Shown here one piece after another: positions 10,921-28,816 of a stretch of DNA of 64,000 nucleotides. The position numbers were made by a program, and so were the translations under genes. This DNA is from Oceanispirochaeta sp. (GTDB lineage: Bacteria; Spirochaetota; Spirochaetia; DSM-2461): contig CAXXOA010000002.1 in NCBI GenBank assembly GCA_963666275.2, positions 832,001 to 896,000 on the forward strand, in the 5' to 3' direction. The notes under the pieces are model-generated. The model had not been told where the DNA came from. It saw only the letters and a program-made list of their open reading frames with translations, and did no database searches. Numbering within the stretch: the first letter of the stretch is position 1; each line of letters begins with the position of its first letter.

Positions 10921-14094
<3,174 letters not shown>

Positions 14095-14199
14095 TTACCT
14101 CCCGGGTATATAACCTTGTTCTAGTCCTTTTACACTTGCTTTTACATGAGTGTTCTGGTAAAAAACATATGTAAAATGGTATATCCGGGACTGGAGAAA

Positions 14200-15015
14200 A
14201 TGCAAGAAACAATTCTCTTTCGCTCTCTGGGCGATCAGGAGGACCGTCAGCGGGTGGGCTGCGGCTTCATGTTCAAGCCCGATATCACCCGGGACGAAAC
14301 GGATTCCCTGTTCTCCACCTATGCCATTGTCTATGTCCTCCGGGGGGAGGGGACCTATATAGGTCCCGACGGGATATCCCGCCCCATGGCTGGGGGGACA
14401 CTTTTTCAGCGATTTCCGGGGATACGCCACTCAACAGTACTGAATCCTTCCAGTAACTGGGCGGAATGCTTCCTGGATTTCGGGCCGGGTTTCTATGACA
14501 TGCTGAAGCGGATCCGGGTCGTCAGACCCGAAGAGTATACCCTGCAGCTTAAGGGGAATTTCCGGATAGAGCAGACCATCTACCGCTATTTGAAGCATCT
14601 GGAGAAGGCGGAAGAGAGGGAGCTTCCCGGTCTGAGCCTTGAAATGATGCAGTATGCGGCCTCCCTGCTTCAGCAGGCCCGGGAGGGAAGTCCCGATCAC
14701 TACTGGGGAAGGGTTGAGAAAAGCTGCCGGGATTTTGCTCTTTTGACTTCCCGGCGTGTGGATCTGAAAGAGTACTGCCGGCAGAACGGCTGGGGATATG
14801 AGAAATTCCGGAAGAGTTTTGTCGAGAAGATGGGAATCTCCCCCAAACATTATCTGATACAGAGGCGGATCGACGAAGCCTGCCGGCTGCTCAGATCAAA
14901 CAGGCACAGTGTTAAGGAAATTGCGGAAATTCTGGGGTATTCATCGCCTTTCGAGTTTTCCGCCCAGTTCAAACGGGTCACAGGAGTTTCTCCCCGTGAG
15001 TTCGGCAGGAAGTGA
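14200..15015 (+). CDS. AraC family regulator, divergent from lacZ
   Basis: Cupin-like N-terminus and C-terminal double HTH (SVKEIAEILGYSSPFEFSAQFKRVTGVSP). GGAG RBS favours ATG 14200. Confidence 0.9.
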   Translation: MQETILFRSLGDQEDRQRVGCGFMFKPDITRDETDSLFSTYAIVYVLRGEGTYIGPDGISRPMAGGTLFQRFPGIRHSTVLNPSSNWAECFLDFGPGFYDMLKRIRVVRPEEYTLQLKGNFRIEQTIYRYLKHLEKAEERELPGLSLEMMQYAASLLQQAREGSPDHYWGRVEKSCRDFALLTSRRVDLKEYCRQNGWGYEKFRKSFVEKMGISPKHYLIQRRIDEACRLLRSNRHSVKEIAEILGYSSPFEFSAQFKRVTGVSPREFGRK

Positions 15016-15326: not shown

Positions 15327-15920
15327 ATGGGACAGGTAAAAAAAAATAAGAGAACCCTCCAGGCTGAGGAAACCAAACAGAAAATTTATGAATCCGCTAT
15401 TACCATGATTAAGCAGAAGGGATTCGAAAATGTTACCATTCAGGATATCAATAAACATGCCGGAGTCTCTGTAGGGACTTTCTATCATTATTATAAATCC
15501 AAAGAAGATGTCTTTTTCGAGCTCTATCGCTTTGCTGACGAGTATTTCGAAGATACCGTCTTTCCCAAACTCTTTTCAGAAGATTTCACTACCAGTGAAA
15601 GGATCCTCCTGTTTTTTCAGAATTATGCCGGCTTCAATGTCAAACACGGCATCGACTATGTCAGTCAGTTATACAATACAAAGAACAAACTGTTTATCTC
15701 CCGGGACCGTTATATGCTGGATCTCCTGCTTCGGATAGTTCAGGAGGGACAGAAGAAAGATGAAATCAAAAACAGCATGGATCCGGAAGAGATCATCGAG
15801 GATCTGTTTATCGTGAGCAGAGGAATTGTTTTCGACTGGTGCCTCCATGAAGGAAATTACGATCTCGAGAAGAAAATGCATAAGCATTTGAAGAGGCATT
15901 TGGCCATTTTTTGTAAATAG
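15327..15920 (+). CDS. TetR/AcrR family regulator
   Basis: KGFENVTIQDINKHAGVSVGTFYHYYKSKE HTH; AGGAG RBS. Confidence 0.93.
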   Translation: MGQVKKNKRTLQAEETKQKIYESAITMIKQKGFENVTIQDINKHAGVSVGTFYHYYKSKEDVFFELYRFADEYFEDTVFPKLFSEDFTTSERILLFFQNYAGFNVKHGIDYVSQLYNTKNKLFISRDRYMLDLLLRIVQEGQKKDEIKNSMDPEEIIEDLFIVSRGIVFDWCLHEGNYDLEKKMHKHLKRHLAIFCK

Positions 15921-15992
15921 AATCGATTCATAGAAAAAATTCGCCGAATGTGTTCGATAAAACTTGACAGCTGGGAATTTCGCCCCTATCAT
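15917..15992 (+). promoter_or_regulatory. sigma70 promoter of the oxidoreductase operon, with two upstream candidate TetR sites
   Basis: TTGACA (15964-69), 17 nt, TATCAT (15987-92). Sites ATAGAATCGATTCATA (15917-32) and GCCGAATGTGTTCGAT (15943-58). Confidence 0.7.
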
Positions 15993-16098
15993 GAATCAAG
16001 TAGTTTATCTAACACATCACAACTCATTGAATTCTTCCGTACAATCCGAAGGTTTGATAAGTCATGATGTACATTGAAATCTTTTACTGGAGATGAAC

Positions 16099-17562
16099 AT
16101 GAGCGACACATTGAATCGATTGATTGGTATTGTTGGAAAAGACCGGGTTGTGGAAAATCCGGATTTTACCAGTGATACTGTCGGTTGCAGAGCCGTTAAA
16201 GAGCCGATGCAGCCGGAATTCCTCGTTAAACCTTCCAATACGGAACAGGTTCAGGAAATTGTTAAGATGGCAAGTGAATCAGCCATTCCCCTTATCCCTG
16301 TCAGTTCCAGCGGTCCCCATATAACAGGGGGCGTATCTGCCAGTGCACCCGGTGCCATTGTGGTGGATATGAGTGGAATGAACAAAATTCTTAAAGTGAA
16401 CAGACGGCATCGCCTGGCTTTGATCCAGCCTGGTGTTACCTGGGATCAGCTGGCAGCGGAGCTTGCTGAAAACGGACTGAGAATTCCCCAGCCTCTGCTT
16501 CCGAAAAAAGGGAAATCCGTTATTGCCTCCCTGCTGGACAGAGAGCCCCTTCTTTCGCCCAAGTATCAGTGGAATATGACGGAACCACTCCGGTCTATGG
16601 AGATCGTCTTCGGAACAGGAGACATCGTCTACAGCGGTATGGGAGGTCATAGAGGTGAAAAAGAAGAGAACTGGGAAAACGGTGAAATTCCCGTAACCAA
16701 TGCGGGTCCCCATCAGTTTGACTTTATCAAAATGGTTACAGCTTCTCAGGGTACCTTTGGTATTGTTACCTGGGCCTCGGTCAGAGTCGAAGCTGCCACG
16801 ACTGTGGAAAAGCCTGTTTTTGCCGAAGCCGCCTCCCTGGAAGCCCTCTCTAATTATATGTATAAGAATCTGAAATTCCGCTTTGGCGACGAGGTCTGCC
16901 TTTTCAACAGAAAAGCCATGGCCAGTATTCTGGCAGAGACGGGAGATTCTATATCGTTATACGAAAGCAATCTTTCAAACTGGACCGCCATGATCAATAT
17001 CAAATGGGGAGCCCTCCGTGCGAAAGAGAAAGTAGAGGTTCAGGAAGCGGATGTCATGGATATCGCCCAGGAGAACGGCCTGGTTCCGACAGCCTCTGTA
17101 GCGGGACTGCCCGCGGCGGAAGTGACGGGAAAAGTTCTGGCATTGCCTTCGGAAGAGAGCTGGAAAGACAGGAAAACAGGAAAGTCCAAAGAGATTTTCT
17201 TCCTGTCCACTCTGGATAAAATCCCCGGTCAGCTCAAGGCTGCTGCCGCTCTGGCGGACAAGCACGGTTATGCCTTTGCAGAATGCCCCGTATATATTCA
17301 GCCCCTTCATCAGGGAACCGCTGCCCATTGTCATATAGTCCTTCCTGTAACAGGAAATGAAGCGGAGACAGAAGAGTTTGCCGCCCTGTACCGTGACTTG
17401 AGCAGAGAACTTATGAACGCCGGAGCATTTTACTCCAGACCTTACGGTATCTGGGCGGATCTGGTTTATGACAGGAATGCCCAGAATACAATTCTTACCA
17501 GCAAGATGAAAGATATCTTCGATCCGAAGCATATCATGAATCCTGGAAAACTGTGCTTCTAG
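16099..17562 (+). CDS. FAD-binding oxidoreductase (VAO/PCMH, GlcD/E-like)
   Basis: VKPSNTEQVQEIVK, VDMSGMNKIL, QPGVTW, SQGTFGIVT and C-terminal FDPKHIMNPGK. GGAG spacing favours ATG 16099. Confidence 0.85.
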   Translation: MSDTLNRLIGIVGKDRVVENPDFTSDTVGCRAVKEPMQPEFLVKPSNTEQVQEIVKMASESAIPLIPVSSSGPHITGGVSASAPGAIVVDMSGMNKILKVNRRHRLALIQPGVTWDQLAAELAENGLRIPQPLLPKKGKSVIASLLDREPLLSPKYQWNMTEPLRSMEIVFGTGDIVYSGMGGHRGEKEENWENGEIPVTNAGPHQFDFIKMVTASQGTFGIVTWASVRVEAATTVEKPVFAEAASLEALSNYMYKNLKFRFGDEVCLFNRKAMASILAETGDSISLYESNLSNWTAMINIKWGALRAKEKVEVQEADVMDIAQENGLVPTASVAGLPAAEVTGKVLALPSEESWKDRKTGKSKEIFFLSTLDKIPGQLKAAAALADKHGYAFAECPVYIQPLHQGTAAHCHIVLPVTGNEAETEEFAALYRDLSRELMNAGAFYSRPYGIWADLVYDRNAQNTILTSKMKDIFDPKHIMNPGKLCF

Positions 17563-17578
17563 GAGAGGGGAGGAAATT

Positions 17579-18847
17579 ATGTCATTGAAAGATTTTACTA
17601 AAGAGATAGAAAGGTGCAGCGCCTGTTCCTACTGTAAGTGGATTCCTTTTGATCAGGTGAAAAGCTGGCGGTATTCAAAAAACTGTCCCAGCATCGATTA
17701 TTATAACTTCAACAACTATTCCGCCAGAGGCCGGTATCTGACAAGCCGCTCCATCTTAAGAGATGAGATCGAACTGACAGACGAGGTTATGGACATTGCC
17801 CATACCTGCCTTAGCTGCGGCGCCTGTGATGTATCCTGTAAAATCGCACGGTACAACCTGGAACCTCTGGACATGACCAGGGATCTGAAGGCTGAACTGG
17901 TGGAGAAAGGGAAATATCCCGAAGCCCATAAGGCCATACTGAAAAACCTTGAGAAAGAACTGAATGTCTTCGGTAAGGACAAGAAAAAACGGGGCGACTG
18001 GGCCAAAGGCCTGGGAATCAAGGACCTGACAAAAGAGAAAGCGGAAGTGGTTTTTCATGCCGGCTGCAGCTACAGTTTTGATGAGAAGTTGAGCGGAACT
18101 GTACAGACGGCGGTGAAAATTCTCCAGAAAGCCGGAGTGGACTTCGGTATCATGGGAAATGCGGAGATGTGCTGCGGAGCCAAAGCGTATTCCATGGGAC
18201 ATTATGATGAGTTCCAGAAACTGGCAGATCCGAATATGAAACTCTGGGAGAAAGCCGGTGTCACCACCATTGTGACAGCCTGTTCCGACGGATATCATGC
18301 TTTTAAAAGAGTCTATCCCCAGTACGGAAGCAAGTTCAAAGTCATGCACATTGTGGAGTACATAGATCAGCTTATAAAAGAGGGGAAACTCACTTTCACA
18401 AAAGAAGTCCCTATGACAGTTACCTACCATGATCCCTGTCATCTGGGAAGGCTGGGTGAACCTTATGAAGAGTGGAATGGCGAGGAAACTACCTATAAAA
18501 ACCAGATCATTGTGCATACCCCCCGCAAACCCCGGTACAACGGAATCAAGGGAATCTACGATGAACCCAGACATATACTGGAAAGTATTCCCGGTGTGAA
18601 ACTGCTGGAAATGGAAAGGATCCGGGAGTACAGCTACTGCTGCGGAGCCGGCGGGGGAGCCAAAGAGAGCTATCCCGAGTTTTCCAACTGGGTTGCTGGA
18701 GAGAGACTGGATGAAGCGGTATCTACCGGTGCGGAAACGATGATTACCGCCTGTCCCTGGTGTAAGACGAATTTTACTGATGCTCAGAGTGAGAGCAGTT
18801 CCATGAAAATTCTTGATATTCTCGATCTTGTGCAGATGGCACTGTAA
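17579..18847 (+). CDS. 4Fe-4S dicluster plus two CCG domain protein (GlcF/GlpC/HdrD-like)
   Basis: CSACSYC...CP and CLSCGACDVSC; HAGC..CCG..TAC; YHDPCHLGR..CCGAGGG..TACPWC. Confidence 0.9.
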   Translation: MSLKDFTKEIERCSACSYCKWIPFDQVKSWRYSKNCPSIDYYNFNNYSARGRYLTSRSILRDEIELTDEVMDIAHTCLSCGACDVSCKIARYNLEPLDMTRDLKAELVEKGKYPEAHKAILKNLEKELNVFGKDKKKRGDWAKGLGIKDLTKEKAEVVFHAGCSYSFDEKLSGTVQTAVKILQKAGVDFGIMGNAEMCCGAKAYSMGHYDEFQKLADPNMKLWEKAGVTTIVTACSDGYHAFKRVYPQYGSKFKVMHIVEYIDQLIKEGKLTFTKEVPMTVTYHDPCHLGRLGEPYEEWNGEETTYKNQIIVHTPRKPRYNGIKGIYDEPRHILESIPGVKLLEMERIREYSYCCGAGGGAKESYPEFSNWVAGERLDEAVSTGAETMITACPWCKTNFTDAQSESSSMKILDILDLVQMAL

Positions 18848-18862
18848 TCAAGGAGATGCAAA

Positions 18863-20521
18863 ATGAGTTTAACAGATACGCAATATAAAGAACTGGAAAC
18901 GATCGTAGGTAAAAGGAATATCTCCAGAGATCCGGGAGTTCTTGACGGTTACCGCTACAATCTGGCACATACGGCGATTCATCTGGGACCCCACTTTGAT
19001 GTTCTGACTCCCCGGGGTCTGGCAGTACTTCTGCCGGGAAATACGGAAGAGGTCCAGAAAATTGTAAAATGGTGCAACAGAAACGGAATCAAGTACAAAC
19101 CGTCTTCCACTTTCTGGTCTGCCCAGGGATACCCCTGTGATGACAATACCCTTGTGCTGGATATGCGCAGGATGGATAAAATCCTGTCGATCGATGCGAA
19201 GAATATGATTGCCGTTGTGGAGCCCGGTGTTATCGGGGCGACCCTTCAGGCTGAAGTTATGAAAGTAGGACTGAACTGCCATATTCAGGGTTCAGGCTGT
19301 TCCTGTTCCATCCTGGCGGGTGCTACAGCATGGCTGGGATCCGGTCCCGGTAACCTTTATGCGGGATGGCAGTATGAAAACCTGCTCGGAGCCGAGTGGG
19401 TGCTTCCCACCGGAGAGGTTGTCAGAACAGGATCCCTGGGTTATGACGACGACGCCTGGTACTGCGGCGAGGGTCCCGGACCCAGTATGCGTGGTGTCAT
19501 AAGAGGTATGTTCGGTTCGAAAGGGTCTCTGGGAACATTTACAAAGTGTGCCGTAAAACTGCACGCCTGGCCCGGTCCCAACCATCTGCCTGTGTACGGA
19601 AAGGCTCCTGCCTATACCACAAAGCTTCCTGATAACTTTGCGGCTTTTACGCTGGGATTCCCCGACTGGCAGGCCTGGGCTGATACAGCCCATCTCCTCT
19701 GGGAAAACGGGATCGGATACTCTGCCCACAGACAGTTCAACTTTCTGGGAAGGGATCTCAAATGGGGTATGATTCAGATCCTTACTGATCCTGAAAAAAC
19801 CATTTCCGACCTGGAGGGCCTCGTCAATGAACCGGGCTTCAAGGAAGTCAACGATTCCATGAAAATTGACTTCCAGCTGATCATGGCCGGTATGACCCAG
19901 CGTGACTTTGACTGGCAGAGGGAAACTCTCGACGAGATCCTGAAAATAACAGGAGGCTATATTGTCGAGTGCATGGATACGGAGCACCTGGAAAACTACA
20001 CCCTTCTGTATCTGCTGAGGCTGGGACACAAGTCTCTCAACTTGGTCTACGGCGGTGGTTATGACGGAAACTTCGGTATGATCAATGCTATCGATTTCGG
20101 TGCCCAGCGGGCCGAAGAAGCCGGAGCCCTCAAACTGGAATGGGAGAAAAAAGGTCAGATCGTTGCCGGAGGCGGTGACTGTATGATGGGACCCATCGGT
20201 GGTCAGGGGGGAGGCGGAACCGGTCTGTGGGAAAACTTTACCTGTTTCGACAGTGCCAGCAAAGAATCCACAGACGGTGCTCTGGCTTTCTTTGATGCCT
20301 CTTTTGAGTATGCCAAGTCCAAAGGCTGGAGCGGAAGCGGTTTTGAGAAACTGAACTCCATGGCCCGGGGTTACGATGGATACTCTACTCCCAAAGAGAT
20401 CAGGGACAAGGGCCATGCTGGCAGTCCCAATGCAACAGCATTTCGTTATCAGGCAAAGGTCTACAGATCTTTGAATCCCAACGATATGGGTGATACCTAT
20501 TACGAGATACTGGAAGACTGA
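18863..20521 (+). CDS. Second FAD-binding oxidoreductase (VAO/PCMH type)
   Basis: LPGNTEEVQKIVK, LDMRRMDKIL, VEPGV, EWVLPTGEVVRTGS, GEGPGP and GSLGTFTKCAVKL. Confidence 0.82.
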   Translation: MSLTDTQYKELETIVGKRNISRDPGVLDGYRYNLAHTAIHLGPHFDVLTPRGLAVLLPGNTEEVQKIVKWCNRNGIKYKPSSTFWSAQGYPCDDNTLVLDMRRMDKILSIDAKNMIAVVEPGVIGATLQAEVMKVGLNCHIQGSGCSCSILAGATAWLGSGPGNLYAGWQYENLLGAEWVLPTGEVVRTGSLGYDDDAWYCGEGPGPSMRGVIRGMFGSKGSLGTFTKCAVKLHAWPGPNHLPVYGKAPAYTTKLPDNFAAFTLGFPDWQAWADTAHLLWENGIGYSAHRQFNFLGRDLKWGMIQILTDPEKTISDLEGLVNEPGFKEVNDSMKIDFQLIMAGMTQRDFDWQRETLDEILKITGGYIVECMDTEHLENYTLLYLLRLGHKSLNLVYGGGYDGNFGMINAIDFGAQRAEEAGALKLEWEKKGQIVAGGGDCMMGPIGGQGGGGTGLWENFTCFDSASKESTDGALAFFDASFEYAKSKGWSGSGFEKLNSMARGYDGYSTPKEIRDKGHAGSPNATAFRYQAKVYRSLNPNDMGDTYYEILED

Positions 20522-20529
20522 AAGTAATA

Positions 20530-20550
20530 CCGGGGGCTTCGGCCGCCCGG
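20530..20550 (+). terminator. GC-rich cUUCGg hairpin between the flavoprotein genes and the ALDH
   Basis: CCGGG-GGC-TTCG-GCC-G-CCCGG followed by TTGATTTT. Confidence 0.5.
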
Positions 20551-20679
20551 TTGATTTTAAAAAAATTAGGTACTTGGTCTCTGGATTGTTGGTGTAACGA
20601 TGGTGCTGGCAGGCATGATTATTCCAGCGTAAATCCGGATCAGAACAGACTTGCTGTTTTTAAGGAGGAATGAAAAACT

Positions 20680-22059
20680 ATGTCTGAATATGTAGCAGGA
20701 TTATTGAAAAGGGCGAGAGATGCCCAGGCGCAGATTGAATTTCTGTCTCAGGAAAAAGTCGACGAGATTTGTGAAAATCTTGCCTGGACTACAATCCAGG
20801 AGCCCTTTGTGACCGAACTGGCCAAACTGGCTGTGGAAGAGTCCAGGATGGGGCTTTTTGAAAGCAAACACGGCAAAATGATGAATAAAGTCCGGGCCGG
20901 ATGGTTCGATATGAAAGGCAAGAAATCCGCCGGTGTGATTGAAGAAGATCCTGCTCTGGGACTGATCAAAATCGCCAAACCCGTAGGGGTTATCGGAGCC
21001 ATGGTTCCCACCACCAACAACGAAGCCACTCCGGTTCTCAAATCCATGAGCGCCATCAAAGGCAGAAATGCCATTATCCTGGCACCCCATCCCCGGTCCA
21101 TCAAAACCAACGAGATGGTTGTGAACAAGATGCGGGCGGTACTGAAAAAACTGGGTTACCCGGAAGATCTGATCATCCATGTGGATCAGGTAACCATGGA
21201 GAACTCCCAGGAGATCATGAAACAGTGCGATCTGGTTCTGGCAACCGGAGGAGCGGGCCTTGTTAAAACCGCCTATTCCAGCGGAACCCCCGCCTACGGT
21301 GTAGGAGCGGGAAATGCCGTTACCATCGTTGACGATACACAGGATATGAAAGTTGTTGCCGACAAAATCAGACGGTCTAAAACTTTCGATATGGCTACAA
21401 GCTGTTCTGCTGAAAACTCCTGCCTGGCTCAGGATACGATCTATGAGGAACTCTGCAGCGCTCTGGAAGCCGAAGGCGGTTTCAGAGTGAAAGAGGCAGA
21501 TAAGGGGAAGATCGAAAAAGCCCTCTGGCCCGACGGTGAGCATCTGAACCGGGACATCGTGGCTCAGCCTGCGGCAACCATTGCGAAGATCGCCGGCATC
21601 GAAGTTCCCGAAGGAACCAATTTCTTCTTTGTGGAAGAGAGCGGAATCGGCGAGGGATATCCCCTGAGCGGTGAAAAACTGTCTGTAGTGATGACCCTCT
21701 ACAAATGGAGCGACTTTGACAAGGCCGTCCAGATGGTCAACGATATTACCAACTACTCCGGCGCTGGTCACTCCTGCGGTATCCATACCGAAAAGAAAGA
21801 GAGAATCCTTCAGCTGGCTGAGCAGGTGAAAGTGTCCCGTGTTATGGTCAATCAGCCTCACTGTCTTGCCAACAGCGGAGCCTGGACCAACGGTATGCCC
21901 ACCACTCTGACTTTGGGCTGCGGTTCCTGGGGTGGAAACATCTCCAGTGAAAATGTCACCTGGAAGCACCTGATCAACACCACCTGGGTTTCTTCTCCCA
22001 TTGCCAACAGACAGCCTTCCGATGAGGATTTATTCAGTGAGAGCGTCAGAAAAGGTTAA
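20680..22059 (+). CDS. CoA-acylating aldehyde dehydrogenase (SauS/EutE/SucD-like)
   Basis: KPVGVIGAMVPTTN, APHP, LATGGAGLV, GVGAGN, RSKTFDMATSCSAENS (catalytic Cys), SGEKLS and TLGCGSWG. Confidence 0.9.
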   Translation: MSEYVAGLLKRARDAQAQIEFLSQEKVDEICENLAWTTIQEPFVTELAKLAVEESRMGLFESKHGKMMNKVRAGWFDMKGKKSAGVIEEDPALGLIKIAKPVGVIGAMVPTTNNEATPVLKSMSAIKGRNAIILAPHPRSIKTNEMVVNKMRAVLKKLGYPEDLIIHVDQVTMENSQEIMKQCDLVLATGGAGLVKTAYSSGTPAYGVGAGNAVTIVDDTQDMKVVADKIRRSKTFDMATSCSAENSCLAQDTIYEELCSALEAEGGFRVKEADKGKIEKALWPDGEHLNRDIVAQPAATIAKIAGIEVPEGTNFFFVEESGIGEGYPLSGEKLSVVMTLYKWSDFDKAVQMVNDITNYSGAGHSCGIHTEKKERILQLAEQVKVSRVMVNQPHCLANSGAWTNGMPTTLTLGCGSWGGNISSENVTWKHLINTTWVSSPIANRQPSDEDLFSESVRKG

Positions 22060-23680
22060 TAAAAAAAAGGAACTTTCCAATAGGGAAGAAGAGAAACCTG
22101 AACAGGGCATAGACTATGATAGTCTTCCTGCCGCTCATCGGGAGAGTCTGGCCAACATGACCAGGACCCGAGAGACAATGCTGGCCGGTGGCGGTGAGTC
22201 CCGGCAGGCTAACCAGAGAGCAAAAGGAAAAAAAACAGCCCGGGAAAGGATTCAATATCTGACTGATAAAGGGAGTTTCGTAGAAAACCAGCCCTATATG
22301 AAGAGCCGGAATGAGGATTTCGGCATGGATAAGAAGAAGTTTTTCGGAGACGGCGTTGTTACAGGAAGCGCTCTGGTGGATGGAAGGCAGGTATGGCTTT
22401 CATCCCAGGATTTCACCGTTCTCGGTGGATCCCTGGGGGAGGCTCATGCCGCCAAAATTGCCAAAGCCCAGATGGAAGCCATGAAGACCGGAAAGCCCTT
22501 TATCTCCATAAATGATTCCGGCGGAGCCAGGATCCAGGAGGGAGTTCTCTCTCTGGAAGGGTACGGAAGCATCTTCCGGGCCAATACCCTGGCCTCGGGC
22601 GTGATCCCCCAGATGTCCATTATTATGGGCCCCTGTGCGGGAGGCGCCGCCTACTCTCCGGCTCTGACAGACTTTGTCTTTATGGTGGATAAAACCGCCC
22701 ATATGTATATTACCGGTCCCGATGTTATCAAGGCCGTTACCGGTGAAAATGTGACTCACGAAGCTCTGGGCGGGGCAGAAGCCCATAACAGTAAAAGCGG
22801 TAATGCCCATTTCCGCTGTACCTCCGAGGAAGAGTGTCTTATCACTCTCAGGCGGCTTCTGTCCTATCTACCTTCATCCAATAGGGAAGCTCCTCCCATA
22901 GTGGAGTGTATGGACGATCCCGGCAGGAATACAGGAGAAATCATGAATATCCTGCCGGATAAGCCCAACAGGCCCTATGATATCCGTACTGTGATTGATC
23001 TGTTTTTTGATCAGTACAGCTTCCTGGAGGTTCATAAGGAGTTTGCTCCCAGTATGGTAGTCGGTTTTGCCCGGTTGAACGGAAGATCCGTGGGGATCAT
23101 CGGCAATCAGCCTATGGTTTTTGCCGGTTCCCTGGATAAGGACTCTTCCGATAAGGCTGCGCGGTTCATCCGTTTCTGCGATGCCTTCGGTGTTCCCATT
23201 GTGTCTCTTGTGGATGTGCCCGGATATATGCCGGGTACGGTACAGGAGTATGGCGGAATTATCCGTCACGGAGCCAAGCTGCTCTATGCCATTGCGGAAG
23301 CCACAGTGCCCAAGGTGGCTCTGGTTCTCAGAAAAGCCTACGGAGGCGCCTATATCGGTATGGCTTCCAAAGCGCTGGGATATGACAGAGTTCTGGCCAT
23401 GCCTATGGCGGAAATCGCAGTTATGGGAGCGGCGGGAGCGGCGAATATCATTTTCAGGAATGATATCAATGCAGCCCGGGATCCCGAACTGATCCGGGAG
23501 ATCAAGATCCATGAGTACCAGGAGAAGTTCATGAACCCCTATGCGGCGGCATCTCTGGGAATTGTGGATGATGTGGTGCATCCCGAGTCAATCCGTACAG
23601 AACTGATCCGGTCTGTGGAAATGCTTTCTGACAAGATGGAGGATCTTCCCCGGAAGAAGCATGGAAACATTCCGTTGTGA
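22037..23680 (+). CDS. Acyl-CoA carboxyltransferase (PccB / methylmalonyl-CoA decarboxylase alpha type); start uncertain (GTG 22037 or ATG 22157)
   Basis: GKKTARERI, GDGVVTG, QDFTVLGGSLG, DSGGARIQEG, GPCAGGAAYSPALTD, DVPGY, RKAYGGAY and KKHGNIPL. Confidence 0.9.
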   Translation: MRASEKVNKKKELSNREEEKPEQGIDYDSLPAAHRESLANMTRTRETMLAGGGESRQANQRAKGKKTARERIQYLTDKGSFVENQPYMKSRNEDFGMDKKKFFGDGVVTGSALVDGRQVWLSSQDFTVLGGSLGEAHAAKIAKAQMEAMKTGKPFISINDSGGARIQEGVLSLEGYGSIFRANTLASGVIPQMSIIMGPCAGGAAYSPALTDFVFMVDKTAHMYITGPDVIKAVTGENVTHEALGGAEAHNSKSGNAHFRCTSEEECLITLRRLLSYLPSSNREAPPIVECMDDPGRNTGEIMNILPDKPNRPYDIRTVIDLFFDQYSFLEVHKEFAPSMVVGFARLNGRSVGIIGNQPMVFAGSLDKDSSDKAARFIRFCDAFGVPIVSLVDVPGYMPGTVQEYGGIIRHGAKLLYAIAEATVPKVALVLRKAYGGAYIGMASKALGYDRVLAMPMAEIAVMGAAGAANIIFRNDINAARDPELIREIKIHEYQEKFMNPYAAASLGIVDDVVHPESIRTELIRSVEMLSDKMEDLPRKKHGNIPL

Positions 23681-23873: not shown

Positions 23874-23933
23874 CCGGCATCAGCCCTCCCTGCAGAGAGA
23901 AATCCTTCCGGGCTGGTGTCGGTTTTTTATTTT
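23874..23933 (+). terminator. Intrinsic terminator
   Basis: CCGGCATCAGCCC / GGGCTGGTGTCGG 13-bp stem with G-U pairs, followed by TTTTTTATTTT. Confidence 0.7.
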
Positions 23934-24087: not shown

Positions 24088-24765
24088 ATGCATAAAAATA
24101 TCATTGTGTTTGTAAAAAAAAGTATTTTGTTTATCTTTGGTCTCTTTATTATCTCCATTGGTGTGGCTCTCTCTGTTAAAGCCAATCTGGGAGTGTCTCC
24201 CGTCTCGTGCATCCCCTATCTACTCAGTCTGAAATTTTCCCGGTCACTGGGAACATATACGATTTATTTCAATATCACTCTTATTCTTATTCAGGTTCTT
24301 ATTCTGAGGAAAAACTACCCGCTCTTTCAGATGATACAGCTGCCTGTTGTTCTTTTTTTCGGACTCTTCATTGATACTGCCATGCATCTGGTCTCGGGAA
24401 TCGCCGTTTCCTCCTACGCGGGGCAGTTTCTGCTCTGCAGTCTCAGCTGTATCGTGATTGCCATCGGAGTCCTTATCGAGGTGAAAGCGGACTTTACCTA
24501 TCTTCCGGGAGAGGGCGTGGCTCTGGCTCTGACAAGGACATTCGGCTTCCGGTTCGGTAAATCAAAAATGGGGACAGATACCGCCATGGTTGTGGTGGGA
24601 ATTCTGTTCTCTGTTCTTTTCTTTCGGAATATTGTGGGAATCCGGGAGGGGACTGTCCTCGCTGCCGTCGCCGTTGGATTTCTGGTAAGACATTTTCATA
24701 GCTTTTCGATATGGCTGGCAGATATGCTGAGCCAGGAGTCGGGAGATAGTAAAAGTGCCGCATAA
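24088..24765 (+). CDS. YczE/YyaS/YitT-family membrane protein
   Basis: ANLGVSP, PGEG and GIREGT motifs; hydrophobic throughout. ATG 24088 preferred. Confidence 0.8.
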   Translation: MHKNIIVFVKKSILFIFGLFIISIGVALSVKANLGVSPVSCIPYLLSLKFSRSLGTYTIYFNITLILIQVLILRKNYPLFQMIQLPVVLFFGLFIDTAMHLVSGIAVSSYAGQFLLCSLSCIVIAIGVLIEVKADFTYLPGEGVALALTRTFGFRFGKSKMGTDTAMVVVGILFSVLFFRNIVGIREGTVLAAVAVGFLVRHFHSFSIWLADMLSQESGDSKSAA

Positions 24766-24859
24766 AGGAAGGGACAGTCTCTGTAACTGCTGAGCTGTTT
24801 CCTGTGGTATGATTGTTTTCTCCTGACTGTATTTCAGATACCCTGTGAAAGGAGAAAAT

Positions 24860-26299
24860 ATGAACGGATTGGACGCAATCTCTGAACTGACAGATAAGGG
24901 CATTTCCAACCTGAAACTGTTCAGCAATACCATACTCCATCAGATCATAGAGAATACCAATGACGGTATTATGGTCACAGACAAGGATGGCCTGGTTATC
25001 CTGGCAAATCCTCCTGCTGCCAGGTTTATGAACAGAACACCCGAAGAACTGGTCGGGTATAATGTCAGGATTCTGCTTAAAAAAGGCTTTTATGACCGTT
25101 CCACCATTCTGGAAGCCATAAGGACAGAAGCTCCCGTTACAAGAGTCATCTCCCTGCCTCACGGTAAAAATGTCATGTCCACAAGCATGCCGATAATGGA
25201 TGAAAACCATAGAGTCGCCATGATTGTCACAACTACGATCAATCAGGACATAGTGGATACCTATGCCGCTGCGATAGAAAAAGAGAAGATCAAATCCGAA
25301 CAGTACAAATCTGCCGCCACCTATCTTGAAAATCTGGGGATCAGCGGAGAGGAACTTATTTCGATGAGCCCTGTGATGCAGAGTATCCGGAGTGAAGCCT
25401 CCCTCATTGCCAGGACAGACAGTACAGTATTCATTTCTGGAGAATCAGGAACAGGGAAAGAGGTGATAGCCCGGTTTATCCATAAGAACAGTAACCGGAG
25501 GAATGAACCATTTATCCCTGTGAACTGTGCCGCCATTCCGGGAGAACTGATGGAGTCTGAATTCTTCGGCTACGAGAAAGGAGCCTTTTCCGGAGCTTCT
25601 CCCAGTGGAAAGCTCGGCTTCTTTGAGATGGCAAGCAAGGGAACTCTTTTTCTGGATGAGGTGGGAGAGCTGCCCTTGCATATGCAGTCAAAACTTCTGA
25701 GAGTTCTGGAATCGGGCGAGTTCAAGAGGGTGGGGGGAACAAGATTTATCAAGACCGATGTCAGGCTGATTGCCGCCACCAACCGAAATATGGAGTATCA
25801 GGTGCGCCAGAAACTTTTCAGGGAAGATCTGTTCTACCGTTTGAATGTTCTGCCGATTATTCTGCCCCCTTTACGGGAGAGGCCGGAGGATATCATTGCT
25901 CTGGCTGAAAGATTTCTGATCAGATACAACACAAAGTTCGGGAGTAATAAAGTTTTCTCTAAGGACTTTCTTCAGTCCATGATCAATTACTCCTGGCCGG
26001 GGAATGGCAGGGAGCTGCGTAACCTGATAGAACGGCTTGTTATTGTCACCCCCGGGCAGGAGCTTGAATATGAACTCCTCAGTAATGGAAATCCCGTGAG
26101 AACTGACTGCAGAGAGGATTCCGGAAATACGGAGAATCAGATGCTGCCTCTTAAAGACGCTGTCAGGGATTTTGAAGCCCGATATATCAACAGAATGCTG
26201 TCCCAATGTGAAGGAAGGGTTTCCCGGGCGGCGGAACAGCTGGGCATTCACAGAACACAGATCTATAGAAAACTGAATAGCTGCAAAGAACTGGATTAG
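24860..26299 (+). CDS. PAS-domain sigma54-dependent activator (bEBP)
   Basis: PAS N-terminus; [42 protein letters not shown]; Fis-type HTH. Confidence 0.93.
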   Translation: MNGLDAISELTDKGISNLKLFSNTILHQIIENTNDGIMVTDKDGLVILANPPAARFMNRTPEELVGYNVRILLKKGFYDRSTILEAIRTEAPVTRVISLPHGKNVMSTSMPIMDENHRVAMIVTTTINQDIVDTYAAAIEKEKIKSEQYKSAATYLENLGISGEELISMSPVMQSIRSEASLIARTDSTVFISGESGTGKEVIARFIHKNSNRRNEPFIPVNCAAIPGELMESEFFGYEKGAFSGASPSGKLGFFEMASKGTLFLDEVGELPLHMQSKLLRVLESGEFKRVGGTRFIKTDVRLIAATNRNMEYQVRQKLFREDLFYRLNVLPIILPPLRERPEDIIALAERFLIRYNTKFGSNKVFSKDFLQSMINYSWPGNGRELRNLIERLVIVTPGQELEYELLSNGNPVRTDCREDSGNTENQMLPLKDAVRDFEARYINRMLSQCEGRVSRAAEQLGIHRTQIYRKLNSCKELD

Positions 26300-26316
26300 T
26301 GCAAAATTGCATCATA

Positions 26317-26357
26317 TGTCGTAAAATCACAACAAACATTGTTGCAGATATGCGACA
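26317..26357. promoter_or_regulatory. Two TGT-N12-ACA upstream activator sequences
   Basis: TGTCGTAAAATCACAACA (26317-34) and TGTTGCAGATATGCGACA (26340-57), about 75-110 bp upstream of the -24 element. Confidence 0.6.
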
Positions 26358-26429
26358 TTCAGGCATTCCACTGCTGGATATTCAGCCTCCGAAGCACATT
26401 TTATGAGACTTTCAGAGTCTTTTCTTTTT

Positions 26430-26445
26430 TGGCACATTAATTGCA
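26430..26445 (+). promoter_or_regulatory. sigma54 (-24/-12) promoter
   Basis: TGGCAC-ATTAA-TTGCA. Confidence 0.88.
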
Positions 26446-26536
26446 ATTCCTTAGGATGAGGATTAATCAACCTCTCTCCAGTTCCTGTAACTGGTAAAAC
26501 ATTTTAAGGAGTTCTTATGAAAAGGAGATTAAATCT

Positions 26537-27838
26537 ATGGTAGTTGCATTAAGTGGAATCGGTATCCTGCTTGGATTTATCAATCTGATGTTTGGCGCCT
26601 GGAAAAAAGTGAACCTGCTTGTTGTGACTTTGATTACCAGTGCCATTATTGCTATTTTCAGCGGCATGAACATCGCTGAGGTCTGGACCGGTCCCTTTAT
26701 GGAGGGATTTACAAGCTTTGCGGGAAAATACCTGCTGCTGTTCTGTTTCGGAGCCCTCTTCGGAAAAATTATCGAAGACAGCGGTGCGGGCTGGCGTATC
26801 GCCACTTCCATCGCCAGTAAAACCGGAAACCGGATGGCTCTGGGAGCATTGACTCTTGTCACCGCGCTTCTGCTGTACGGAGGCGTCAGCATTTTCGTTA
26901 TTGTCTTTTTTATCCTTCCCATAGGAAAAAGCCTCTTCAAGAAAATAGGGATTCCCTGGTACCTCTTTCCCGGTATTGCCATGATCGGAACAATTCCCGC
27001 AGTGGGTATGCTTCCCGGGACTCTTCAGATTCTGAATATCATCCCCACAAACTTTCTCGGCACCACTCTGACTGCCGGCGCCGGTGTCGGCCTTTTCGCC
27101 ACGGTCCTCTACTGTGCCATGGCCTATCTCTATACAAAGCGCATCCTCAAAACCAATGCGGCCAATTTTGATCTGGAAGAATTTAACGCCGGGCATCAGG
27201 TGGAACTGAACGAAGCGGAACTGGAAAGCAAAGCCCCCAACGTTCTTGTTTCTATTGCTCCCATTGCTGTGGCTCTTATCCTGATCAATGTTTTCAAAAT
27301 CAACATCGTTATCGGAATGATCCTGGCCAGCCTTGCAGGTATCGCTCTGTTCTGGAAATCCCTGGGAGGGGCAAACTTCTGGTCTACTGTGAATAACGGT
27401 ATTGCCAACGGGATTGCTCCTGTTATCTATGTCTCTGTTGTTGTGGGCGTTGCCAGAACCGTGGCGTCTGTTCCCTTCTTTGAAGTCATGAGAGATTCCC
27501 TTCTGAACCTTCAGATCAACGGCCTTCTGAAAGTGGTTGCCACCACTTCGGTGATGTCTGCCATGACAGGTTCCTCATCAGGAAGTATGACAATGATTCT
27601 GGATCTCTTCGGAAAAGAATTCCTCTCCTGGGGATACAATGCCGGACTGCTGCACAGACTCATTTCGGTTGCCTCTCTGGGCTTCGATTCCCTTCCCTGG
27701 AACTCTGTAGTGGTTGTCTTCTTTACACTCAGCGGTGTTTCCTACGCCAAGGGGTACAAACATGTTTTCGCCTATACCGTGTTGATGCCCTTCCTCTGTG
27801 CTCTGGGAATCATTCTGGTCTCACCTATTTTCTATTAG
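26537..27838 (+). CDS. GntP-family organic acid permease
   Basis: GALFGKIIEDSGAG, LLYGGVSIFVIVF, PGTLQILNIIP, TGSSSG and GFDSLP; AAGGAG RBS. Confidence 0.85.
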   Translation: MVVALSGIGILLGFINLMFGAWKKVNLLVVTLITSAIIAIFSGMNIAEVWTGPFMEGFTSFAGKYLLLFCFGALFGKIIEDSGAGWRIATSIASKTGNRMALGALTLVTALLLYGGVSIFVIVFFILPIGKSLFKKIGIPWYLFPGIAMIGTIPAVGMLPGTLQILNIIPTNFLGTTLTAGAGVGLFATVLYCAMAYLYTKRILKTNAANFDLEEFNAGHQVELNEAELESKAPNVLVSIAPIAVALILINVFKINIVIGMILASLAGIALFWKSLGGANFWSTVNNGIANGIAPVIYVSVVVGVARTVASVPFFEVMRDSLLNLQINGLLKVVATTSVMSAMTGSSSGSMTMILDLFGKEFLSWGYNAGLLHRLISVASLGFDSLPWNSVVVVFFTLSGVSYAKGYKHVFAYTVLMPFLCALGIILVSPIFY

Positions 27839-27868
27839 AAGAGATTTTATCAGGAAGGAGGAACAGAT

Positions 27869-28249
27869 ATGCCTGCACTACAGGAAAAAAATAAAGAGAT
27901 TGTCAGGGACTTTTATGATCTGATAATAAATAAAAAAGACTTTGCTGCGGCAAAAAAATATGTAGGTCCCCGGTATAAGCAGCATAATCCACTGGTAAAA
28001 GACTATCCGGAAGGACTTGAGGAGTTTATAAATTTCCTCAGAGATAACTATCCCGATGCCCATAGTGAGATTAAAGCCATATATGCGGATGGGGACCATG
28101 TCATTCTACACGTCCTGTCCTACAGGGATGAGACTTTAAAACGGGCCATTATTGAGATTTTCCGTCTGGAAAACGGCAGGATTGATGAGCATTGGGATGT
28201 GATACAGGAAATTCCAGCCAAATCAGCCAATCTCAACGGTATGTTCTAG
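27869..28249 (+). CDS. SnoaL-like / NTF2-fold protein
   Basis: NKEIVRDFY, YKQHNP, ADGDHVILH and IFRLENGRIDEHWDVIQ. Confidence 0.85.
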   Translation: MPALQEKNKEIVRDFYDLIINKKDFAAAKKYVGPRYKQHNPLVKDYPEGLEEFINFLRDNYPDAHSEIKAIYADGDHVILHVLSYRDETLKRAIIEIFRLENGRIDEHWDVIQEIPAKSANLNGMF

Positions 28250-28366
28250 TCCGGAGTGACAATTCATATGCGGCAGAGTTCTGCTTTGGCCGCTATTCAT
28301 TCCCGGGAGGGATTTCCAGCTCTCCCGGTTCACAAAAATCAATCAGATATTCCAAGGAGTTCTCAT

Positions 28367-28816
28367 ATGCACGAAAATAATCAGGGTGAGTACGGTAAAT
28401 ATATTATTCAGGAACTTCAGGATCCCAACCTGGGGTCTCCGGATTTTCAGGAGATGTATAAAAAATTCTCCAACAGAATCTTATGGATAGACAATAATGT
28501 CCTGGAGGGGGCGTTTCAGATGAATACAGCCTGGTACTATGCGGTTCCTCCTGTCAGCCCTGTTTTTGATGAGCATGTTCATGACCATGATGAGCTTATC
28601 GGTTTTTTCGGGTCCAATCCGGAAGATCCCTATGATCTGGGAGCCGAACTCGAGGCGGGGATCAATGGGGAGATGCATAAAATTACAAAGTCTTCGCTTA
28701 TCTTTGTTCCCGGGGGAATGAAGCACATGCCCCTTTCCATCAACAGGGTGGATCGTCCCGTCTTTCATTTCTCCATTGTTCTTAACTCCGAATATGGAGA
28801 CGGAGCGTATAAATGA
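28367..28816 (+). CDS. Metal-binding cupin protein
   Basis: HVHDHDE...VPGGMKH cupin ligands; AAGGAG RBS before ATG 28367. Confidence 0.75.
   Translation: MHENNQGEYGKYIIQELQDPNLGSPDFQEMYKKFSNRILWIDNNVLEGAFQMNTAWYYAVPPVSPVFDEHVHDHDELIGFFGSNPEDPYDLGAELEAGINGEMHKITKSSLIFVPGGMKHMPLSINRVDRPVFHFSIVLNSEYGDGAYK

Follow-up and report, generated by a model that had tools for sequence, protein, structure and literature searches.

A predicted malonyl-CoA route for malonate semialdehyde and its probable link to a flavin/iron–sulfur protein trio in Oceanispirochaeta

We have analysed a 64-kb stretch of DNA from Oceanispirochaeta sp. (GenBank assembly GCA_963666275.2, contig CAXXOA010000002.1, positions 832,001 to 896,000; hereafter the window), in which six genes, all on the + strand, encode a TetR-family regulator (TetR), a flavoprotein (FP1), an iron–sulfur subunit (FeS), a second flavoprotein (FP2), a CoA-acylating aldehyde dehydrogenase (ALDH) and a stand-alone acyl-CoA carboxyltransferase (CT). 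The operon is real, and the gene set, coordinates and short gaps proposed in an earlier prediction made from the sequence alone (the original prediction) are confirmed, with 16 nt between FP1 and FeS, 15 nt between FeS and FP2, and a further 158 nt between FP2 and ALDH. Gene contexts support well that ALDH and CT form a bypass which, we conclude with high confidence, would convert malonate semialdehyde (MSA) into malonyl-CoA and then into acetyl-CoA and CO2, replacing the one-step reaction of MMSDH/IolA. FP1–FeS–FP2, hereafter the trio, probably starts a route that yields MSA, and an aryl-C3 acid stands ahead as its substrate. Throughout the text, G numbers denote the genomes compared (G000 being the source genome, which is 97% complete), C numbers its contigs and L numbers the fetched loci.

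Malonate semialdehyde as the predicted substrate of the ALDH–CT pair

Inositol breakdown ends in MSA, which is normally removed by IolA/MMSDH. No protein of the source genome passes the MMSDH cut-off (best score 257.6 bits against 448.5 for TIGR01722), though iolG, iolB, iolD and iolE are present, and TIGR01722 does not appear among the ALDH matches. Among 38 genomes of the family, iolD occurs in 21 and an MMSDH over the cut-off in one. Within the genus, the seven of 11 genomes that contain iolD are the same seven that possess an ALDH of at least 73% and a CT of at least 77% identity, the other four being devoid of all three. Two genomes, G036 and G037, harbour an MMSDH-like gene beside iolD (418 bits, under the cut-off) and have no match to either ALDH or CT.

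In 15 of the 20 fetched ALDH loci, those at 54% identity or above, CT is adjacent without exception, and the gene that precedes ALDH encodes a transaldolase in ten (eight with iol genes in the fetched stretch) and a class-III aminotransferase in three, being cut off in two; the five remaining loci (44–48%) lack CT. Outside the family, an ALDH of 56% identity heads a PreT–PreA–amidase–dihydropyrimidinase–aminotransferase operon, with PreA and dihydropyrimidinase over their cut-offs; the end product of this reductive pyrimidine operon is beta-alanine, transaminated to MSA. A CT relative of 65% identity is located in an operon with the malonate transporters MadL and MadM, a CoA-transferase, a biotin carrier and the beta subunit of a Na+ pump. 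Another pump operon of this kind is found close to an aminotransferase gene and a 58% ALDH. The assignment of the pair rests on the agreement of three separate MSA sources and one malonate context. The sequence semialdehyde, malonyl-CoA, decarboxylation put forward in the original prediction is thus supported by gene contexts and by the missing MMSDH, its connection with Na+ pumping being plausible.

The best NCBIfam family of ALDH is SauS (NF047625, 519.2 bits against a cut-off of 600), and the active-site stretch singled out in the original prediction occurs at residue 232. The resemblance to SauS perceived there is real, both enzymes belonging with SucD to the same acylating branch of aldehyde dehydrogenases, but it gives no indication of sulfonates: ALDH falls under the SauS cut-off and has no sulfoacetate-CoA ligase or other sulfonate gene beside it. 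SucD (8CEI) is the best solved match of ALDH, and the source genome's own SucD-like enzyme belongs to a separate clade. CT matches PF01039 with 621 bits and, as best family, MmdA (TIGR01117) with 752 bits against a cut-off of 999. It carries Ile at the position that we take, by motif placement, as Asp422 of Streptomyces coelicolor PccB, a residue described as having a role in acyl-group preference (PMC7835884), and this substitution favours acetyl/malonyl groups.

In comparison with MMSDH/IolA, the ALDH–CT pair has the same predicted net reaction, MSA to acetyl-CoA and CO2, and the same contexts (inositol, beta-alanine/pyrimidine, trio), but consists of two unrelated proteins with a free malonyl-CoA intermediate, which would permit Na+ pumping or malonyl-CoA supply. 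Malonyl-CoA reductases of the archaeal Asd type and the bacterial SDR type also interconvert MSA and malonyl-CoA, although with other folds, and a 2025 review, in its available text, names only these two types for the step (PMC12041015). No description of the ALDH plus CT route was found in the literature searched, at the level of listings and abstracts, most subscription journals lying outside it.

As regards the fate of the carboxyl group, CT resembles the PccB/MmdA-type alpha subunit of Na+-pumping (methyl)malonyl-CoA decarboxylases (MmdADCB), and relatives at 63–65% identity occur in complete pump operons. The window locus, in contrast, holds the alpha subunit only, with no biotin carrier, beta or gamma/delta subunit, so that a pump would have to be borrowed from the oxaloacetate decarboxylase (Oad). 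Biotin motifs in the source genome occur solely in OadA (two domains) and in an 1829-aa carboxylase; its single OadB is 61% identical to the pump beta subunit found beside the related CT. Borrowing is plausible, at about even odds: carboxybiotin would most likely be handled by the Oad Na+ pump, whose alpha subunit has two biotinyl domains, or the pair could operate by slow biotin-free decarboxylation or supply malonyl-CoA for lipids. Against the biotin-dependent scheme, the biotin-carrier motif is absent in all 21 family ALDH loci and no carrier lies beside any ALDH–CT pair in them. Since OadB occurs in 36 of the 38 family genomes, its presence is no test of pump borrowing. Two loci of biotin proteins were also observed: L014:6851-8947 encodes an OadA-like protein with two tandem biotinyl domains, a candidate shared carrier for orphan carboxyltransferases, and L015:7609-13098 encodes the 1829-aa single-chain biotin carboxylase/biotin carrier/carboxyltransferase.

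Further observations concern the surroundings of these enzymes. Two very similar Na+-pumping decarboxylase operons occur in G040 (L177:5723-9345 and L184:5338-11476), one with a malonate transporter and a CoA-transferase, the other near ALDH, an aminotransferase and a nucleobase-type permease. IolC over the cut-off is missing in eight genomes with iolD (G000, G003, G006, G009, G011, G012, G013 and G015), and a transaldolase-family gene (in G000, L013:7781-8854, equivalent to C2:1887780-1888853) precedes ALDH–CT in the six IolC-less genomes where this is visible. By analogy with sulfofructose transaldolase, its product may cleave unphosphorylated 5-dehydro-2-deoxygluconate to MSA, saving ATP. 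A second clade of acylating ALDH (45–48%; L143:8891-14522, L144, L145 and L146) belongs to a conserved cluster that also encodes a CoA-transferase, a split transketolase and an HMG-CoA-lyase-like protein and is located near other iol-like genes in G005, G008, G025 and G029; the cluster may provide a pathway for a different cyclitol or for a branched sugar.

ALDH–CT as a module copied from the inositol cluster

The stretch from the ALDH start to the CT stop (20680-23673) aligns to C2:1888960-1891953 at 90.3% identity, the encoded proteins being 97% (ALDH) and 90% (CT) identical. This second copy follows the transaldolase-family gene and lies beside the iolG, iolB, iolD and iolE homologues. In the ALDH tree both source-genome copies are sisters (support 100/99) nested among inositol-linked orthologues, with end branches of 0.031 for the window copy and 0.0025 for the inositol copy; the longer branch and the nesting indicate that copying proceeded from the inositol cluster to the trio. 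In L001, the nearest relative (FP2 90% identical), FP2 is followed by a terminator-like hairpin and then YczE, and in the window the same hairpin follows CT, hence ALDH–CT was inserted upstream of the operon terminator. ALDH–CT is therefore a unit distinct from the trio and a recent copy from the inositol cluster. Mis-assembly of the FP2–ALDH junction was considered and is unlikely, since the copies are 90% identical and the junction is bridged by contigs of three DNA runs from one sample, possibly the source sample, a fact that argues solely against mis-assembly.

Upstream of TetR, the window contains genes for a GH2 beta-galactosidase and an AraC regulator (10921-15015). The same pair flanks transaldolase–ALDH–CT in G003 and G009, which points to local rearrangement at the window site.

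A probable tie between the trio and malonate semialdehyde

After three duplicates were dropped, two continuation loci merged and eight loci with a distant, fragmentary or uncalled FP2 left out, 90 trio loci were kept. An MSA dehydrogenase gene occurs in 21 of them, namely an MMSDH in 19 (three as fragments at contig ends) and the ALDH type in two, L003 and L160, the latter counted by hand from a 61-residue start. Such a gene lies at most two genes downstream of the trio in 14 of the 71 loci with downstream sequence, and 14 of the 39 loci of at least 10 kb contain one. The trio-linked MMSDHs tested score over the cut-off when whole and keep the Arg-Cys motif; they are scattered over an FP2 tree built by a quick method and comprise two sequence types at 43–45% identity.

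At genome level, five of the 16 genomes with a trio of the window clade have an MMSDH and no acylating ALDH match, eight have an ALDH of at least 54% and no MMSDH, and three have a partial or 49–53% ALDH; none has both, and two genomes with only a distant trio have neither. This test is only moderate, because 16 of the 38 family genomes possess ALDH in any case. Stronger evidence comes from the placement of the palindromic operator that precedes FP1 (Table 1). In G013 an ALDH orthologue directly follows a paralogue-type trio under an operator variant with the −35 box, CT of that genome beginning another contig, and in G844 an operator half with the −35 box lies upstream of the CT Na+-pump operon. 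Given the 21 loci with an MSA dehydrogenase and the operator shared by ALDH or CT genes of two other genomes, the pathway of the trio probably yields MSA, as the original prediction had suggested, and one operator ties trio and ALDH/CT genes together in other genomes.

Several points weigh against this tie. No MSA dehydrogenase was found in 69 of the 90 loci, many of which are short, nor in 25 of the 39 loci of at least 10 kb. The expected co-occurrence holds for the ALDH type, which recurs beside trios, and fails for CT, which lies beside the trio in none of the 90 other loci. The trio-associated MMSDHs score 496–563 bits and could take a substituted semialdehyde, and the hairpin behind FP2 could reduce transcription into ALDH. 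We also observed a 141–166-aa protein with no Pfam/NCBIfam match (L008:14349-14774 and ten other loci), which follows the trio-linked MMSDH almost every time.

The trio as a flavin/iron–sulfur family

FP1 and FP2 are full-length homologues sharing 22% identity; they are divergent in sequence, as the original prediction had it, and not in orientation. His/Glu metal-binding motifs are a hallmark of D-2-hydroxyacid dehydrogenases. The HxGDG, HxxDGN, HHG and EHG motifs are absent from FP1 and FP2, and GEGPGP is present at FP2 residue 202, both as predicted; the His/Glu motifs are likewise absent from all 240 close homologues, an EHGxG pattern appearing in two of 150 distant representatives. The comparison with GlcDEF holds for the domain architecture, since the trio shares with GlcDEF, Dld and LctD two VAO-fold (FAD_binding_4) flavoproteins, a CCG Fe–S subunit and an NAD-independent electron exit. 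It does not hold for the family scores, which are far under the cut-offs (64.5 and 74.2 bits against 567.9 for GlcD, 56.4 against 333 for GlcF), nor for the metal motifs, structural identity to GlcDEF and D-lactate dehydrogenases being 16–18%. A plain lactate/glycolate dehydrogenase is ruled out by these scores and by the absent motifs.

The best sequence matches of both flavoproteins are 4-phenol oxidoreductases (VAO, EUGO, PCMH and vanillyl-alcohol dehydrogenase), which are also the best fold match of FP1. The FP1 model (pLDDT 84) places 4-phenol dehydrogenases first in the fold search with a TM-score of 0.77, against 0.69–0.72 for D-lactate dehydrogenases, and the VAO fold extends over the whole chain in both proteins (about 0.6 for FP2). 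Identity is nevertheless around 20%, the phenolate-binding tyrosine is not evidently kept, and the trio has an Fe–S/CCG subunit in place of cytochrome c or O2 as partner, no cytochrome gene being present in the window cluster. Within its own clade FP2 retains 62–66% identity where FP1 retains only 45–49%, and the C-terminal half of FP2 is highly variable across the wider family; FP2 is the probable substrate-binding subunit.

Of 8000 candidates scored against FP2, 1089 are relatives at E ≤ 0.001, and its profile search gave 253 clusters (50% identity) at E < 1e-30. An ESM Atlas search with FP2 returned unnamed clusters only, and no assayed member of the trio family was found in the literature searched. 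The trio loci fetched comprise 10 from genomes, the 79 best of at least 593 metagenome matches, and further regions. The order FP1–FeS–FP2 is conserved wherever contig extent allows, often with a TetR homologue, and a few loci lack one subunit in the open-reading-frame calls. In a Spirochaetota sample, matches were found in nine of 401 genomes; a phylum-wide search around G038 gave one of 401 genomes at E ≤ 1e-150 and added no loci beyond G038.

A second trio of the source genome, on contig C3, is 38/58/47% identical to that of the window. This paralogue (L011, G000:C3:38643-52965) has the same operator and lies near genes for a family-III CoA-transferase, Had/Fld-type dehydratase subunits with their activator, an acyl-CoA ligase and a URO-D-family protein, with a glycyl-radical enzyme further along. 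L049 and L050 contain a second, distant trio (34–37%) beside an AbfD-like gene, an Fe-alcohol dehydrogenase, an alpha/beta hydrolase and a CoA-transferase, perhaps another subfamily engaged in C4 chemistry.

The same architecture has been described, without assays, for the putative benzene-activating trio BzS1_12970/80/90 (Musat et al. 2026, PMC13416013) and for the "Magic" proteins #24–26 of Ca. Anaerobenzenivorax ORM2 (Toth et al. 2026, PMC13101534). Trios of benzene degraders are 63–89% identical to each other, and distant syntenic homologues (23–42%) were considered likely to serve other functions; labelled 3-phenylpropanoate was detected, suggesting addition of benzene to a C3 unit (PMC13416013). 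The word "malonate" is absent from the available text of Musat et al., and a link to MSA is not discussed in the available text of either paper. Both kinds of trio have the same gene order and similar sizes, with one flavoprotein bearing both FAD domains, a two-CCG Fe–S protein and one flavoprotein with the N-terminal FAD domain only; read by eye over the first ~400 residues, FP1 and #26 have several short motifs in common, and #24 is similar to FP2. In contrast, the 390 fetched relatives, among them the 150 best cluster representatives, all lack three short motifs of #24/#26, and the MaoC dehydratases, paired CoA-transferases and BamQ of benzene degraders are missing from the window, whose trio is linked to MSA. 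On this by-eye and motif comparison the window trio looks distant from that of benzene degraders. Benzene activation in the source organism was rejected on this apparent distance and on context.

With respect to electron transfer, ETF was rejected as partner, no PF01012 match being present in the genome, and the de novo futalosine route to menaquinone was also discarded, with no MqnA/MqnD match and just MqnL and a prenyltransferase. Hence salvaged menaquinone would be the likeliest electron acceptor. The MqnL gene lies in L173:3357-9684 (G000:C1) with a UbiA/MqnP-like prenyltransferase, a U32 protein, an aminotransferase and a binding protein, a cluster possibly involved in menaquinone head-group salvage.

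Candidate substrates and mechanism

From sequence comparisons and structure models we tentatively propose that the trio acts on a 3-(hydroxyphenyl)propionate such as phloretate, hydrocaffeate or hydroferulate, which is ranked above 3-hydroxypropionate because of the 4-phenol-dehydrogenase fold matches and the aromatic-acid neighbours. MhpT-like transporters (393–399 bits, cut-off 410) lie beside the trios of G323 and G331, together with corrinoid methyltransferase genes. In L007 the operator separates TetR from the gene of a TRAP binding protein, and the best-matching solved structures of this protein bind D-Trp, indolepyruvate and indoleacetate (PMC10443332). The isethionate TRAP binding protein is a weak match to the same protein (40 bits against 124). 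The next matches of the L007 protein, 7NSW, 7NRR, 7NR2 and 7NQG, are putative hydroxycinnamate-binding TarP proteins. Other trio neighbours include members of the benzyl-alcohol-dehydrogenase family, pyrogallol-transhydroxylase homologues, UbiD/UbiX and a VprA-like gene (313 bits, cut-off 600). The 2-hydroxyacyl-CoA dehydratase set beside the source-genome paralogue has HadB/C as best models, under the cut-off, and would be of aryl-lactate or leucine type. Altogether, aromatic-type markers occur in 31 of the 90 trio loci and in 23 of the 39 of at least 10 kb, nine loci having an MSA dehydrogenase as well. Elsewhere in the source genome, L170 (G000:C2:1108000-1127999) contains two UbiD-family decarboxylases, UbiX, two xanthine-dehydrogenase-family molybdoenzymes, an ALDH and an Fe-alcohol dehydrogenase.

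Other data speak against an aromatic substrate. 4-Phenol oxidoreductases possess a Tyr-Tyr-Arg phenolate pocket. By alignment, neither FP1 nor FP2 retains the phenolate-binding Tyr of the N-terminal motif, FP1 having Thr and most relatives Arg; the invariant Arg449 and Tyr451 lie where the pocket residues would be expected, but with an alignment score of only 7.5 bits. The FP2 model (pLDDT 70) does not distinguish between D-lactate dehydrogenase and 4-phenol oxidases, matching both with a TM-score of ~0.6. URO-D (best match CdmB) and AOR, both counted in the 31 loci, are not aromatic-specific, genes for aromatic transport or ring handling are missing from the window itself, and the UbiD, alcohol dehydrogenase and AOR neighbours would suit a benzaldehyde/benzoate product as well as free phenol. 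Oxidative cleavage of an aryl-C3 acid to MSA was not found in the literature searched, with the same coverage of journals as above.

Considering these data, the window could encode a TetR-controlled catabolic operon in two layers, the trio and then ALDH–CT, presumably co-transcribed. In a trio complex, a flavin would abstract a benzylic hydride to give a quinone methide, as in VAO/PCMH; water would add to it, and ring protonation with retro-aldol-type cleavage of the aryl–carbon bond would release phenol and MSA. Tyrosine phenol-lyase offers an analogy for such aryl release. The net two-electron reaction, ArCH2CH2COO− to ArH and MSA, would be the simplest one joining an aromatic acid to MSA. 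Electrons would exit via the 4Fe–4S/CCG subunit, probably to menaquinone, ALDH would oxidise MSA to malonyl-CoA with NAD(P)+ and CoA, and CT would move the malonyl-CoA carboxyl group to biotin, giving acetyl-CoA and carboxybiotin for the Oad Na+ pump. Taken as a whole, the proposal that the trio is the first member of a flavin/Fe–S family that cleaves or forms the bond by which a C3 acid is attached to an aromatic ring, its MSA then following an undescribed Na+-conserving malonyl-CoA route, is possible and stays doubtful.

The original prediction favoured a free primary alcohol. The trio would then be an NAD-independent 3-hydroxypropionate (or 3-hydroxyisobutyrate) dehydrogenase, working on the alcohol in the manner of GlcDEF, with ALDH–CT finishing the route. 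Such a function offers the simplest chemistry leading to MSA, agrees with the architecture, with the D-lactate dehydrogenase structures that head the FP2 model matches and with an SfMCT-type monocarboxylate transporter in L006, and fits all the MSA-link evidence equally. However, it leaves the MhpT-like and indole/aryl-acid-type TRAP transporters of the regulon and the nearby aromatic enzymes unexplained, the His/Glu motifs of hydroxy-acid dehydrogenases are absent, and no acrylate/dimethylsulfoniopropionate, glycerol or beta-alanine genes recur beside the trio among annotated neighbours. We consider it unlikely; the fold matches and the neighbouring genes speak no less for an aromatic C3 acid.

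Less probable still, the trio might only oxidise or hydroxylate an aromatic side chain, as PCMH does, and another enzyme, with MoaF-, SnoaL-, cupin- and ThDP (thiamine diphosphate)-type neighbours as candidates, would release MSA at a later step; the side chain might then be longer or of another kind, and a benzaldehyde the co-product. This would be ordinary VAO/PCMH chemistry, the benzyl-alcohol dehydrogenase, AOR and UbiD neighbours suit an aldehyde or acid product, and cupin-like homologues adjoin trios in three loci (L058, L060, L091) and MoaF in four of 90. There is, on the other side, no constant accessory gene, several loci consist of trio and MMSDH with nothing between, and the window SnoaL/cupin genes form a separate sigma54-type cluster. 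A substrate substituted at C3 of propionate via S, N or O (3-mercapto- or 3-methylthiopropionate, an N-substituted beta-alanine or an ether), oxidised at C3 and hydrolysed to MSA, appears improbable. VAO-family enzymes oxidise C–N and C–O bonds, CCG domains handle thiols in HdrB, and the corrinoid/URO-D methyltransferases, alcohol dehydrogenase and AOR could prepare such compounds; yet the transporter matches are to aromatic acids, and no sulfur- or amine-specific genes recur among annotated neighbours.

It is very improbable that ALDH–CT is an inositol-pathway duplicate that landed by accident behind an unrelated trio. The lack of CT beside other trios and the local rearrangement suggested by the GH2–AraC pair would agree with such an accident, but the copy, intact from ALDH ATG to CT stop, occupies the space between FP2 and the terminator, the trio acquired MSA dehydrogenases of other lineages on separate occasions, and the operator controls ALDH in G013 and CT in G844. 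A sulfonate pathway, in which the trio converts isethionate to sulfoacetaldehyde and a SauS-like ALDH forms sulfoacetyl-CoA, would take advantage of the SauS match and of the isosterism of isethionate/sulfoacetaldehyde with 3-hydroxypropionate/MSA, but is ruled out for practical purposes by the SauS cut-off, the gene context and the 97% inositol paralogue, as well as by the lack of a role for CT, the absence of a SauT-like ligase or Xsc beside ALDH, the acetolactate-synthase-like nature of the ThDP gene in L004 and the weak isethionate TRAP match.

Locus layout, promoter and operator

Table 1. Features of the operon and its borders (window positions)
Feature	Position	Strand	Remarks
TetR-family regulator	15327..15920	+	PF00440; homologues of 44–54% adjoin the trio in many loci
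Palindromic operator CGAA-N4-TTCG, putative TetR site	15945..15956	+	7 nt upstream of −35 box
Sigma70-type promoter TTGACA-17-TATCAT	15964..15992	+	Top site of scan, 11/12; −35 box kept in relatives
FP1, VAO/PCMH-fold flavoprotein, 489 aa	16093..17562	+	PF01565 + PF02913
FeS, Fe–S subunit, 422 aa	17579..18847	+	4Fe–4S dicluster domain and two CCG domains
FP2, VAO/PCMH-fold flavoprotein, 552 aa	18863..20521	+	PF01565 only
GC-rich hairpin with weak T run, after FP2	20529..20551	+	60-nt region folds at −18.3 kcal/mol; single copy in genome
ALDH, CoA-acylating aldehyde dehydrogenase, predicted MSA to malonyl-CoA	20680..22059	+	97% identity to inositol-cluster copy
CT, stand-alone acyl-CoA carboxyltransferase, predicted malonyl-CoA decarboxylase alpha subunit	22001..23680	+	PF01039
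Intrinsic-terminator-like hairpin and T run	23874..23928	+	Common to FP2–YczE gap of L001 and post-CT site of inositol cluster
YczE/DUF6198 membrane protein	24088..24765	+	Directly follows trio in L001; marks far side of insertion

TetR is likely to repress the trio and would bind the palindromic operator, which also precedes FP1 in L004, L006, L007, L160 and the source-genome paralogue. Operator and −35 box together occur twice in the source genome against 0.65 expected, in both cases upstream of FP1 genes, and a relaxed operator pattern was found upstream of eight of 55 FP1 genes and in 99 of 5865 background blocks of 300 nt; the operator is mostly a spirochaete feature. No sigma54 or operator site was seen between FP2 and ALDH, by eye and pattern scan, and the GC-rich hairpin after FP2 is possibly a partial terminator or stabiliser. 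The CT start is uncertain, since TTG 22001 overlaps the ALDH end and further in-frame starts exist at 22022, 22037 and 22157.

Downstream of YczE, positions 24845-28816 of the window encode a PAS-sigma54 regulator, a GntP-like permease, a SnoaL-like protein and a cupin-like protein with no Pfam match. Homologues of the cupin-like gene adjoin trios in L058 (31%), L060 (41%) and L091 (58%), and an ESM Atlas search with it returned unnamed clusters only. These genes may belong to the same pathway as the trio.

Implications

Our results present ALDH plus CT as an apparent non-orthologous replacement of MMSDH/IolA across many spirochaetes. If this is true, the pair fills a gap in the inositol, beta-alanine and uracil pathways of these bacteria, adds an ALDH-superfamily enzyme for the step between MSA and malonyl-CoA, of interest for 3-hydroxypropionate and malonyl-CoA engineering, and could allow anaerobes to pump Na+ from a step that MMSDH wastes.

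Relatives of the trio are leading candidates for anaerobic benzene activation. With MSA as the probable product of the route in one clade, a regulator, an operator and a short list of substrates, the chemistry of the trio family becomes testable in a simple system. If aryl-C3 cleavage were true, anaerobes would eat the side chain of lignin monomers, and the reaction would be the formal reverse of the addition of benzene to a C3 unit, making this clade an assayable model for anaerobic benzene activation and nominating MSA, or another C3 acid of neighbouring oxidation level, as its missing co-substrate.

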